From an uncultured Actinomycetota bacterium (GTDB lineage: Bacteria > Actinomycetota > Actinomycetes > Mycobacteriales > Mycobacteriaceae), in contig CAWGIJ010000008.1 of assembly GCA_963822655.1 (NCBI GenBank), positions 9,337-73,336 on the forward strand: DNA of 64,000 nucleotides, in the 5' to 3' direction. Positions 21,971-24,247 of the stretch are shown here, in pieces. Both the position numbers and the translations under genes were made by a program. The first letter of the stretch is position 1. Every line of letters begins with the position of its first letter. The notes below the pieces were generated by a model. The model saw only the letters and a program-made list of their open reading frames with translations. It was not told the origin of the DNA and made no database searches.

Positions 21971-22255
21971 GTGGGGCAAGGATTACTCGTAGACACTGCC
22001 GGCGTGCAGGCCATGGCCACGCGCTGGGGCGCTTCGGCGGGCGACCTGAACAAGGTGGTCGCACCGAGCGGGCTCGGGTTGCCGTGTCAGACCAGCGCGG
22101 CCGCGGTCGATGCCGCCCACGCAGCCGTCTTGGCTTTCACCGCGGGCTTGGCCTTGCGGGTGGATGGGCATGCCAGCGGAGTGACTCGGGCCGACGCGAA
22201 TTATCTCGCCCAGGAAGCCGATGCAACGTCGGCGTTGGCAGCGGTCGGTGGGTAA
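21971..22255 (+). CDS. ESX (type VII) secretion-associated small helical protein, EspC/DUF2580-like
   Basis: 94 aa, GTG start. LLVDTAGVQAMATRWGASAGDL...SAAAVDAAHAAVLAFTAGLALRVDGHASGVTRADANYLAQEADATSAL matches the pattern of mycobacterial 'type VII secretion target' proteins. Confidence 0.55.
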   Translation: MGQGLLVDTAGVQAMATRWGASAGDLNKVVAPSGLGLPCQTSAAAVDAAHAAVLAFTAGLALRVDGHASGVTRADANYLAQEADATSALAAVGG

Positions 22256-23353
22256 GCGATGGCGACGAATGCTCGGCTTGTCGGCCCTGCTGTCGTGGCC
22301 GACGGACCATCTGACCGAGGCGGCCGGTCACTGGGAAGCTGTCGGCGAGCGTAGCTATGCGGTGGCGCATGGGGTGTGGAGCGATGCGCTCGAGGTGGAG
22401 TGGCGCGGCGAGGCCGCCGACGCACTGCTTCCGCCACTCACGCGGACATGCTCACCACCAGCGCGGCGGTCGACCAGTTGCAGGACGCCGCGAGCGTTGC
22501 GCGTCGCGGGGCCTCGGAGTTGCAAGCGGCCCGCTCGCAAGTGCGCTACGCCGTCGAGGATGCGCGGTCGGCGGGATTTCAAGTGGGCGAGGATCTTTCG
22601 GTCACTGACCGAATGGTCGGAGGGTCGGCGGCGCAGCGGGCTGCGCGGCAGGCCGCGGCTGAGGCGTTCGCTGGTCAGATTGATGGGCGGGCGGCGCAGC
22701 TGGTGAGCGTTGATGCGCAGGTTGCCGGCAGGATCACGGCGGCGGTGGCCGGCATCGGGGCACTTTTCCCTCGACACCGACTACCAACGGCCACGTCCAC
22801 GCAGTTGACAACCGCACGTTCAAGCAGGGCCCCGACAAGCCGCCACCGGCGCCGAAAGGGCCCGACGCTGCTGATATTCGAAAGGTCATCCAAGAGTTGC
22901 CGGAAGGGTCGGACTACGACATCAGAGAGGTTCGAACCCCGCAGGATCTGCAGAATCTTAAAAAATGGATGACCAAGCACGGCTCCGACATGCCAGCCGA
23001 TACCGCGAGCCGGCAAGGGAGATTGGACGCGGCTGCCGGACGGCAACGAGGTCGGTGAGCGCTACGCCGCAAAGTCGACTGGCCAGAGTGCGTTAGAGGT
23101 CGACCTCAAAGCGCCAGATGGGACGACTGAGCACTGGAAGATCCACATCAATCCGGAGACGGGCGCGGTGCCTGACATTCCGGCGGTCCAGCCGGCGCCG
23201 GCCGAATCGACGGCAGAGCCAGAGCCAGCCGAATCGGCTCCGGTGGAGGGCTTCGAAGGCGTAGGAGGCCCCGCAGGCATACCGTCGCGGCCCGCACTTC
23301 GTGCACCCACCGGGAACTATCCAACATGGGGCCCCGATCCTCGGCGAGGATGA
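22248..23353 (+). pseudogene. WXG100-like N-domain polymorphic-toxin-like protein, at least 3 frameshifts
   Basis: GTG 22248 overlaps the upstream stop (alternative starts at 22221 and 22269). Frames followed: LSALLSWPTDHLTEAAGHWEAVGERSYAVAHGVWSDALEVEWRGEAADALL / HADMLTTSAAVDQLQDAASVARRGASELQAARSQVRYAVEDARSAGFQV...AGRITAAVAGIGALF / PSTPTTNGHVHAVDNRTFKQGPDKPPPAPKGPDAADIRKVIQELPEGSDYDIREVRTPQDLQNLKKWMTKHGSDMPADT / GKGDWTRLPDGNEVGERYAAKSTGQSALEVDLKAPDGTTEHWKIHINPETG...stop 23351-23353. Confidence 0.5.
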
Positions 23354-23428
23354 TCCCGGGGAGGATGCGCGTGACTTCGGGCGCTGAGGTAGCGACGGCG
23401 CCCGCGATACCAAAGGAGCACAACCGCA

Positions 23429-23833
23429 ATGACTGAACCTGGCGCCACCGCGCAGGATGTACTGCGGGACGGCATCTTGGCGAGCGGGCACGATGATTTC
23501 GTGTCGATGGCCGACGTGCAGAGCCATATCTCCCGCGGCGGGCTCGCCGACTCGATAGCGGCGCGCCAGCAGCTCGTGGTCGACACCGTCCGTTCACTGC
23601 TAGTCGATGGACTGGCCGAGGTCGGTGACATCCCTGGGCGAGATGATCCCGGATTCAAGACGTGGCCAGGGACGGTTGACGACGTTATGACGCGATTTGC
23701 CGACCGCTTCGTGGGCCATTACGACGACCGCCTTCAGTGGGAGTACACGATTTGGCTTAACCTCACTGCGAAAGGCGAACAAGCCTCGGCCGACGTTATC
23801 CGTGAGAGGCGCGAAGGCCGTGCAAAGAGTTGA
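23429..23833 (+). CDS. Putative immunity protein, copy 1 (134 aa)
   Basis: Intact ORF immediately downstream of the toxin remnant. About 60 percent identical by eye to the next ORF: MTEPGATAQDVLRDGILASGHDDFVSMADVQ...QQLVVDTVRSLLVDGLAEVG...PGFKTWPGTVDDVMTRFADRFVGHYDDRLQWEYTIWLNLTAKG. Confidence 0.6.
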   Translation: MTEPGATAQDVLRDGILASGHDDFVSMADVQSHISRGGLADSIAARQQLVVDTVRSLLVDGLAEVGDIPGRDDPGFKTWPGTVDDVMTRFADRFVGHYDDRLQWEYTIWLNLTAKGEQASADVIRERREGRAKS

Positions 23834-23878
23834 AGCGCAGTCGGAGCGGCACGCGAAATTCACGACGGCGTCAAGACG

Positions 23879-24247
23879 ATGACGGAACCAGGATCCAGCG
23901 CCCAAGACACGCTTCGCGGGGACATCCTTGCGGTCGGTGTCGACGACTTCGTCTCCCTGGCTGATGTCCGAGGGTGCGTCGACACTGGGGGCCTAGCTGA
24001 CACAGCGGCTGATTGTCAGCAACTTGTGGTGGACACCGTGCGATCGTTGCTCGCAGAGGGCCTGGTCGAAGTCGGCGTCCTAAGTCCCAGCAGCCCGGGT
24101 TTCAAGGCGTGGCCGGGAACGCTCGACGAGGTGATGGCGCGGTTTGCCGACCGGTTCGTCGCGCATTACGACGACCGATATGAGTGGGCCTACAAGATTT
24201 GGCTCAACCTCACCGCGAAAGGCCGGCAAGTCTCGGCAGATTCGTAG
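23879..24247 (+). CDS. Putative immunity protein, copy 2 (122 aa, tandem paralog)
   Basis: MTEPGSSAQDTLRGDILAVGVDDFVSLADVR...QQLVVDTVRSLLAEGLVEVG...PGFKAWPGTLDEVMARFADRFVAHYDDRYEWAYKIWLNLTAKG. Intact. Confidence 0.6.
   Translation: MTEPGSSAQDTLRGDILAVGVDDFVSLADVRGCVDTGGLADTAADCQQLVVDTVRSLLAEGLVEVGVLSPSSPGFKAWPGTLDEVMARFADRFVAHYDDRYEWAYKIWLNLTAKGRQVSADS

Follow-up and report, generated by a model that had tools for sequence, protein, structure and literature searches.

A probable ESX-style polymorphic toxin-immunity cassette with an uncatalogued toxin-domain and immunity pair on a mycobacterial metagenome contig

Background

Polymorphic toxin systems have been defined by Zhang et al. (2012, PMC3482391), and polymorphic toxin-immunity (PT-Imm) cassettes have been described in prophages of Mycobacterium abscessus (Dedrick et al. 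2021, PMC8092301). In prophiGD43A-1, a small ESX/WXG100 protein (gp118) abuts a WxG polymorphic toxin of about 390 amino acids (aa) (gp117), followed by small gene(s) (gp116). In M. abscessus, ESX-4-dependent inter-mycobacterial killing has been demonstrated with the Eat locus (EatA/TapA1/TapA2/EatI; Benedict et al. 2026, PMC13444075), whose toxin EatA, a GH183 arabinanase, attacks the cell wall; two Tap proteins are encoded, and the immunity protein is a secreted lipoprotein. A survey in the same study revealed many Eat-like loci; 47% of their toxins had no known function (PMC13444075). The present analysis concerns a locus at positions 21971-24247 of a 64,000-nucleotide (nt) stretch, referred to as the window, of contig CAWGIJ010000008.1 (positions 9,337 to 73,336, assembly GCA_963822655.1), from an uncultured member of the Mycobacteriaceae. 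The locus is quite probably a polymorphic toxin-immunity cassette of ESX (type VII) style, carried on the chromosome of slow-growing environmental mycobacteria, and its frameshifts in this assembly are most likely consensus errors or at most a very recent event.

The window cassette has the same gene order as the prophage cassettes, together with variable toxin C-termini with matching immunity genes, and a homologous N-terminal domain and partner. It differs in being chromosomal, in an N-domain identity to the prophage toxins of only about 33%, and in its toxin domain and immunity family. By layout it would follow the same logic as the Eat locus (helical accessory protein(s), followed by a toxin whose N-domain is helical and by an immunity gene) but with one partner and a predicted cytoplasmic, acidic immunity protein, which would imply an intracellular target. 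LXG/Lap toxins of the Bacillota type VII secretion system (T7SSb) and Rhs modules likewise join a trafficking module at the N-terminus to an exchangeable toxin at the C-terminus, with downstream immunity arrays including orphans, and the same toxin/immunity pair as in the window is found on an actinobacterial Rhs protein. The window toxin, by comparison, has no LXG Pfam match, lies in a diderm mycobacterial ESX context and carries a linker and tail after the toxin domain. The preliminary description of this DNA had proposed a new mycobacterial toxin-immunity family; the type of cassette is already published (PMC8092301; PMC13444075), and what is uncatalogued is the toxin-domain and immunity pair.

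Results and discussion

Organization of the cassette

The open reading frames (ORFs) agree with the gene order given previously, namely a small partner, a larger toxin gene and two small genes downstream. The features are listed below with their coordinates in the window.

21971-22255, + strand: small helical partner, EspC/WXG100-like, 94 aa, from the ORF list; C-terminal YxxxE export-type motif Y-L-A-Q-E
22259-23387, + strand: toxin gene, about 376 codons, composed of the next three features
22259-22857, + strand: predicted N-terminal trafficking domain, about 200 aa; WxG encoded by TGG-CGC-GGC at 22401-22409; indels after 22266, 22428 and 22761
22858-23164, + strand: predicted C-terminal toxin domain, about 100 aa, GPDAADIRKV...HWKIHINPETG; 1-nt deletions after about 22993 and after 23011
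23165-23387, + strand: Pro/Ala-rich linker and His/Pro-rich tail PHFVHPPGTIQHGAPILGEDDPGEDARDFGR; stop codon TGA 23385-23387; 1-nt insertion at 23287
23429-23833, + strand: putative cognate immunity gene, 134 aa, isoelectric point (pI) 4.7; no signal peptide or hydrophobic N-terminus by eye
23879-24247, + strand: putative second immunity paralog, 122 aa, pI 4.3; 3' end changed by a 1-nt deletion after 24240

The toxin gene runs from ATG 22259 to the TGA at 23385-23387 and is read in successive frames in this assembly. The start had previously been placed at GTG 22248, overlapping the partner; in the alignment, ATG 22259 matches the start codon of the intact orthologs, and the partner TAA ends 3 nt ahead of it.

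C-terminal polymorphism and toxin-immunity pairing

A search with the frame-corrected toxin recovered more than 60 intact full-length orthologs of 373-390 aa, 60-77% identical by BLASTP and 67-82% identical in the alignment. The search for intact orthologs suggested in the preliminary description was thus productive, and the effector domain was reconstructed by frame correction. The locus survey comprised 75 loci from species-representative genomes and metagenomes, with 62 full-length toxins. The N-terminal 55% or so of the toxin is common (about 78% identity) to proteins whose C-termini differ, RNase Sa (PF00545) and colicin D (PF11429) among them. The 62 full-length toxins fell into 19 C-terminal types, each recurrent type being accompanied by its own downstream gene family; such a family was seen with at least 10 different C-termini. 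The C-terminal type of the window was followed by the immunity family of the window in 13/13 loci, and this family followed no other type. The small-protein family is not one that occurs mostly away from such toxins, a possibility that had been raised as a test of the idea. Furthermore, toxin-domain identity and immunity identity covary across loci (Spearman 0.82).

The pairing extends beyond the mycobacterial scaffold. A 2,249-aa Rhs protein ends in the same toxin domain, and the gene for a 122-aa immunity homolog overlaps the Rhs stop codon; comparison of this homolog with the window immunity family gave an hhalign probability of 97% (E = 7e-11). Because the Rhs toxin is accompanied by a homologous immunity protein, the toxin-domain/immunity pair appears to move as a unit between unrelated delivery scaffolds, and the Rhs-linked pair provides the strongest computational evidence for a putative cognate toxin and immunity. 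Swapped C-termini, type-specific downstream immunity and reuse of scaffolds, the hallmarks of polymorphic toxin systems, were all found, as were the upstream small helical gene and the WxG N-domain homologous to prophage toxins expected of Eat-like and PT-Imm loci. These results, together with the strict pairing, uphold the earlier designation of the locus as an ESX/WXG-style polymorphic toxin cassette.

The C-terminal toxin domain and tail

The preliminary description could name no toxin family for the C-terminus, and scans of the toxin domain against Pfam, NCBIfam and PHROGs were likewise without meaningful match; the peptides that it quoted from the C-terminus are present in the sequence. 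A profile of the domain matched nothing among PDB sequences below an E-value of about 1. Structure prediction, as proposed in the preliminary description, yielded confident models for both the C-domain and the immunity protein. The AlphaFold2 (AF2) model of the toxin domain, built from a 32-sequence alignment, had a predicted local distance difference test score (pLDDT) of 75-93 over residues 1-110 and a topology of helix, strand, helix and five strands (a1-b1-a2-b2..b6). The polar residues D6, D30, Y49, R68, K94, H96 and N98 are conserved within the family, R68, K94, H96 and N98 being invariant. Weak Foldseek scores were obtained for RelE (2khe, probability 0.20, E = 0.28) and for Rel synthetase (0.44); assignment of the domain to RelE or Rel/RSH was rejected, as neither fold nor profile comparison gave a significant match.

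The distribution of the domain is wide. A profile of the C-domain (about 109 aa) searched against 1.84 billion representatives yielded 178 relatives, and over the remote homologs a core of the form LPDGT.VG.R..S.SGG.TIDI...K(V/I)H persists. In the remote relatives the toxin domain is the extreme C-terminus, ending in '...KVHI'. Carriers include the Rhs proteins P0346 (22 RHS repeats), P0328, P0382 and P0383, HINT-type pretoxin proteins, the PPE-domain protein P0355, other WxG-bearing helical proteins and membrane proteins, and stand-alone forms of 93-145 aa also occur.

The tail (window 23292-23384; consensus PHFVHPPG..HG.P..GEDDPGE..RDF) is kept in all full-length orthologs, and a similar tail terminates toxins with other types of C-domain (L035, L055, L058, L040 and L061). 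The AF2 model shows no ordered structure for either the linker or the tail.

Putative immunity genes

The 134-aa and 122-aa proteins were without meaningful match in Pfam, NCBIfam and PHROGs scans, and the profile of their family matched nothing in the PDB below an E-value of about 1. The family is acidic, with a median pI of 4.5, and the AF2 model (pLDDT 90.8) has a winged-helix-like fold. In some relatives (P0201 and P0202) the protein is joined to PF09204, a colicin-immunity domain.

The two window proteins are 68% identical to each other, a value above the earlier estimate by eye of about 60%, and a simple, recent duplication does not explain the pair, which had been described as tandem duplicated. 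The 134-aa gene follows the toxin subtype: at toxin-domain identities of 79-99%, its own identity is 86-97%. The nearest matches of the 122-aa gene (75-78%) are the single immunity genes at L002 and L011, two loci with toxin domains that share only 54-58% identity with that of the window. Since the 122-aa gene matches the immunity of loci with diverged toxin domains, it is best read as a putative orphan immunity gene directed against another toxin subtype.

Both genes had been described as intact. Both are uninterrupted ORFs, but the end of the shorter one is altered: its length of 122 aa results from the loss of 1 nt from a run of TTT (after 24240), which replaces the last residues, and the counterpart in L004, a contig 96% identical to the window here, has 126 aa. 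Relative to L004, the 134-aa gene shows 10 synonymous versus 4 nonsynonymous codon differences and 0/38 deviations at near-invariant columns, a clear sign, as judged from codon comparison, of purifying selection. The 122-aa gene shows 5 synonymous versus 9 nonsynonymous differences and 3/38 deviations, and selection on it may be relaxed or diversifying.

Other arrangements of these genes were observed. In P0236 an immunity protein is fused to the C-terminal part of a ParD-like protein, and in L032 (M. ostraviense, 5974-7641) a 555-aa ORF joins toxin to an immunity-like C-terminus. The Joint Genome Institute (JGI) contig L005 carries, upstream of its main cassette (4481-5306), a diverged second copy of small partner plus immunity-like gene (109 aa and 92 aa) with 67-72% nt identity to the window partner and immunity genes, which may be a cassette remnant. 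The L005 toxin is split into 66 and 308 aa.

The type VII link

The connection to type VII secretion comes from the partner and the N-terminal domain of the toxin. An ORF of about 95-99 aa lies 0-4 nt before the start of the N-domain gene in nearly all of the 75 loci. The preliminary description had called the partner EspC/DUF2580-like, which is borne out by 17/34 of the family members, matching Pfam PF10824 (T7SS_ESX_EspC; best E = 2e-5), the window copy itself falling short of significance, as detailed below. A partner-family profile searched against the PDB gave top matches that were mostly Esx/PE proteins, at weak E-values (0.04-0.4), with the partner Y-x-x-x-E lining up with the export motif of EsxB. 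A YxxxD/E motif near the C-terminus is present in 33/34 family members, and the family matched prophiGD43A-1 gp118, annotated as 'ESX complex protein', with an hhalign probability of 90% (E = 1.6e-6).

The W-x-G reported earlier for the N-terminus of the toxin was found at 22401-22409, within EVEWRGEAADAL. Its W and G are 100% conserved in 75/75 toxin sequences, down to about 32% identity. The N-domain matched the M. abscessus prophage polymorphic toxin gp117 with an hhalign probability of 98.6% (E = 1e-15), and M. abscessus prophage toxins were also recovered by tblastn (E = 2e-7). Export of the toxin through an ESX system is thus a reasonable inference from sequence comparison.

Origin of the frameshifts

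Indels were placed by alignment to three intact orthologous loci (L001-L003) and to L004. Five are certain, comprising four 1-nt deletions (after 22428, 22761, about 22993 and 23011) and the 1-nt insertion at 23287; a sixth is probable after 22266, where the gap is 8 nt relative to two orthologs and 2 nt relative to the third. The preliminary description had correctly recognized frame breaks but counted at least three, and it missed the last segment and the stop codon. It had also concluded that the toxin was dead and its immunity orphaned, and the present evidence points elsewhere, since the indels are not accompanied by decay through substitution and three contigs from other samples lack them at the sites that they span.

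The frame-corrected toxin deviates at 1/114 near-invariant columns defined by 61 intact orthologs, which equals the family median (range up to 7). Across the 100 codons of the toxin domain compared with L004, 6 synonymous and 0 nonsynonymous differences were found beside two 1-nt deletions. The JGI contigs L004, L090 and L091, from three samples and reached via members of the immunity-protein cluster, are intact at the three indel sites covered. Two metagenome pattern scans for the indel-bearing or the intact allele gave no match. In the toxin domain, indels and substitutions that separate the window from its nearest relatives stand in a ratio of about 2:3; in the spacer after the 122-aa gene, compared with L004, the ratio is about 1:2. 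A ratio of about 2:3 is far above that usual in the neutral decay of bacterial pseudogenes.

The contrast drawn earlier between a broken toxin and intact downstream genes is not specific to the cassette. The recC-recB-recD operon (exonuclease V; 29345-37640, +), with a local guanine-plus-cytosine (GC) content of about 0.73, is fragmented over many frames; in RecC alone the frame changes at least 9 times within 830 codons, and most of its pieces are 85-94% identical to an intact ortholog. The BadFG/GKRP-like ATPase gene (16641-18339, -) has at least 4 frameshifts, the a/b-hydrolase gene (20099-21023, -) has one near 20410, its first 207 aa being 98% identical to orthologs, and the nitroreductase gene (28023-28539, -) has one. 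All of these broken neighbours (recBCD, BadFG-like, a/b-hydrolase and nitroreductase) remain 85-98% identical to orthologs. The 44-64 kb part of the window shows no frameshift and contains intact ORFs of about 750-810 aa. A frameshift census by dynamic programming on third-codon-position GC content (GC3) in each frame serves as a rough guide, the cassette region with its lower GC3 being called non-coding. A PE_PGRS-like reading of 29-37 kb, with its 73% GC and frame flipping, was considered and rejected, the region being the frameshifted recBCD operon. Many of the relatives come from metagenome-assembled genomes (MAGs) with Flye-style 'contig_N' names (isolate names MFD...), and four such MAGs carry toxin copies with several frameshifts. 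Copies with a single frameshift are found on low-coverage or short-read contigs, and none in genomes of cultured isolates.

Because conserved residues are kept, related contigs are intact and neighbouring genes are broken alike, the indels are probably non-biological, and it is likely that they reflect consensus error in a badly resolved 22-kb part of the MAG contig or else a very recent, strain-private event. A real pseudogene, with both immunity genes retained by selection as neighbours still make toxin, is a possible but doubtful alternative. The 5-6 frame-breaking indels are, after all, present in the sequence, the 134-aa gene is under apparent purifying selection as described above, and the placement of the indels is uneven in ways that weigh against an assembly artefact. 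The window and L004 have 1.77 kb in common, with 8 single-base indels; all are confined to the toxin, the spacer and the last codons of the 122-aa gene, and 0 lie in gene bodies, a distribution with a probability of about 1e-3 under uniform error. Relative to L004, four single-base deletions are clustered in the 56 nt at 24240-24295, one in the end of the 122-aa gene and three in the spacer. Unlike uniform random error, the indels skip about 4 kb of genes inside the 22-kb stretch, and most of them lie outside long homopolymers. Set against a pseudogene are the lack of surplus amino-acid change at conserved toxin positions, the toxin domain having only synonymous codon differences, an indel-to-substitution ratio too high for neutral decay, the three near-identical contigs intact at covered sites, and housekeeping recBCD and other neighbours equally broken while 44-64 kb is not. 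In addition, L004 carries the tandem immunity pair (134 and 126 aa) beside a toxin whose 3' part is in a single frame, which shows that having two immunity genes in tandem does not depend on toxin loss.

Proposed mechanism and alternative explanations

Under the interpretation of the locus as an ESX-style toxin-immunity cassette, the 94-aa EspC-like partner with its YxxxE motif would pair with the WxG helical N-domain, and the two would form a composite signal for ESX export, by analogy with PE/PPE, EspA/EspC and EatA/Tap. The payload would be the alpha/beta domain of about 100 aa that also forms the extreme C-terminal end of proteins of the Rhs, HINT, PPE and other WxG kinds, and it would act in the cytoplasm of the target cell. 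The producer would be shielded by the acidic, presumably cytoplasmic, winged-helix-like 134-aa protein encoded directly downstream, and the 122-aa paralog would supply an extra, orphan immunity fitting the toxin subtype of other strains. The weakest step is the activity of the payload, for which a small RNase with an active site of K-x-H plus Arg may tentatively be suggested. RNases of the RelE/colicin D type (BECR) are similar in size (about 90-100 aa), in having N-terminal helices on an antiparallel sheet and in being paired with an acidic inhibitor, and they share with the window toxin domain conserved Lys, His and Arg on the last strands, an analogy only, with no significant sequence or fold match.

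Several results weigh against this interpretation. The window's own partner did not match PF10824, and its sole match in the Pfam/NCBIfam scan was a weak one to DUF6317 (E = 0.11). For the N-domain, the best Pfam results were WXG100_2 at E = 1.5 (2/62 members) and WXG100 at E = 8.8 (1/62), with none for LXG; profiles of the N-domain and of the full-length toxin gave no significant match in the PDB (nothing below an E-value of about 1), and hhalign found no relationship of the N-domain to EsxA (probability below 1%) or to the partner family. Filing the N-domain under WXG100 (PF06013) or LXG (PF04740) was rejected, as no profile match was significant, and the helical fold of a substrate for type VII secretion (T7SS) is predicted from the motif and from homology to annotated phage proteins. 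Foldseek comparison of the toxin-domain model with PDB and BFVD revealed no neighbour below E = 0.01, and the RNase proposal draws on size, topology, the conserved K/H/R and the acidic immunity protein only. Finally, in the mycobacterial subfamily the linker and tail come after the toxin domain, unlike in the remote homologs.

Two other explanations concern the roles of the C-domain and the small proteins. That the C-domain is a host- or environment-directed effector or binding module, with the downstream protein as its chaperone or adaptor, would agree with the C-domain having no recognisable catalytic fold and with its non-terminal position in mycobacteria, and CpnT/TNT, the best-studied mycobacterial T7SS toxin, acts on host cells and offers a precedent. 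Such a role is nevertheless improbable, since in Rhs and HINT proteins the domain occupies exactly the position of a toxin domain, the same N-domain is joined to RNase Sa and colicin D toxins in sister cassettes, and the downstream gene occurs in tandem and as orphans, as immunity genes typically do. It is less probable still, to the point of being very remote, that the 134-aa and 122-aa proteins are PadR/MarR-like winged-helix regulators of the operon rather than immunity proteins. PadR/MarR proteins were the top Foldseek matches, with probabilities up to 0.99 and template modelling (TM) scores of 0.5-0.64, but at weak E-values (0.08 or above) and with no Pfam helix-turn-helix match, and the small proteins are strongly acidic (pI 4.3-4.7). 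Moreover, the small-protein family is tied to one type of toxin domain over ESX and Rhs scaffolds, the Rhs-linked copy overlaps the toxin stop codon, and some relatives are fused to a colicin-immunity domain.

A more far-reaching extension of the cassette interpretation is rather unlikely but can be formulated: the toxin domain might be a structurally new, cytoplasm-acting class carried on Rhs, HINT and ESX scaffolds of Actinomycetota, countered by a winged-helix-derived acidic immunity protein, and the tail, gained in addition by the mycobacterial form, might be a new module with which the toxin crosses the mycomembrane of a target cell or docks there.

Interbacterial killing by type VII secretion in mycobacteria was shown only in 2026, for a cell-wall arabinanase, and about half of the predicted payloads are functionally unassigned. 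The locus offers a small, well-delimited and widely reused payload with its antidote, and would widen the known repertoire to an intracellular target. Intact orthologs are present in cultured M. paraffinicum, M. gastri and Mycobacterium sp. 1245111.1, which makes the pair directly testable. A 'dead toxin, live immunity' reading taken from a single MAG contig needs confirmation at the level of reads.

Neighbouring genes

Within the annotated portions of the window, a partial survey, no ESX core gene was found. The slot of the cassette is syntenic, with the a/b-hydrolase and methyltransferase genes on one side and ParD-zeta or nitroreductase genes on the other, and contains no phage genes. The S-adenosylmethionine (SAM)-methyltransferase gene (21113-21895) is intact, and an NlpC/P60 gene (18507-19478) is in a single frame. 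Convergent with the cassette is a 174-aa ORF (24344-24868, -), which was without match in Pfam, NCBIfam and PHROGs scans; its 3' part is kept in L004 (5 synonymous versus 4 nonsynonymous differences). The region 37600-44600 is an island of lower GC content (0.57-0.63 versus 0.66 for the whole window) with a weak codon-position signal, containing an ORF with a PLD-like/NgoFVII-type restriction endonuclease domain (41495-42385) and several ORFs without family. Genes for a ParD-like antitoxin (141 aa) and a zeta-toxin/AAA_33 protein (192 aa) are intact at 25606-26606 (+), with overlapping stop and start codons; the pair is syntenic with L001 and is located upstream of the cassette in L005.

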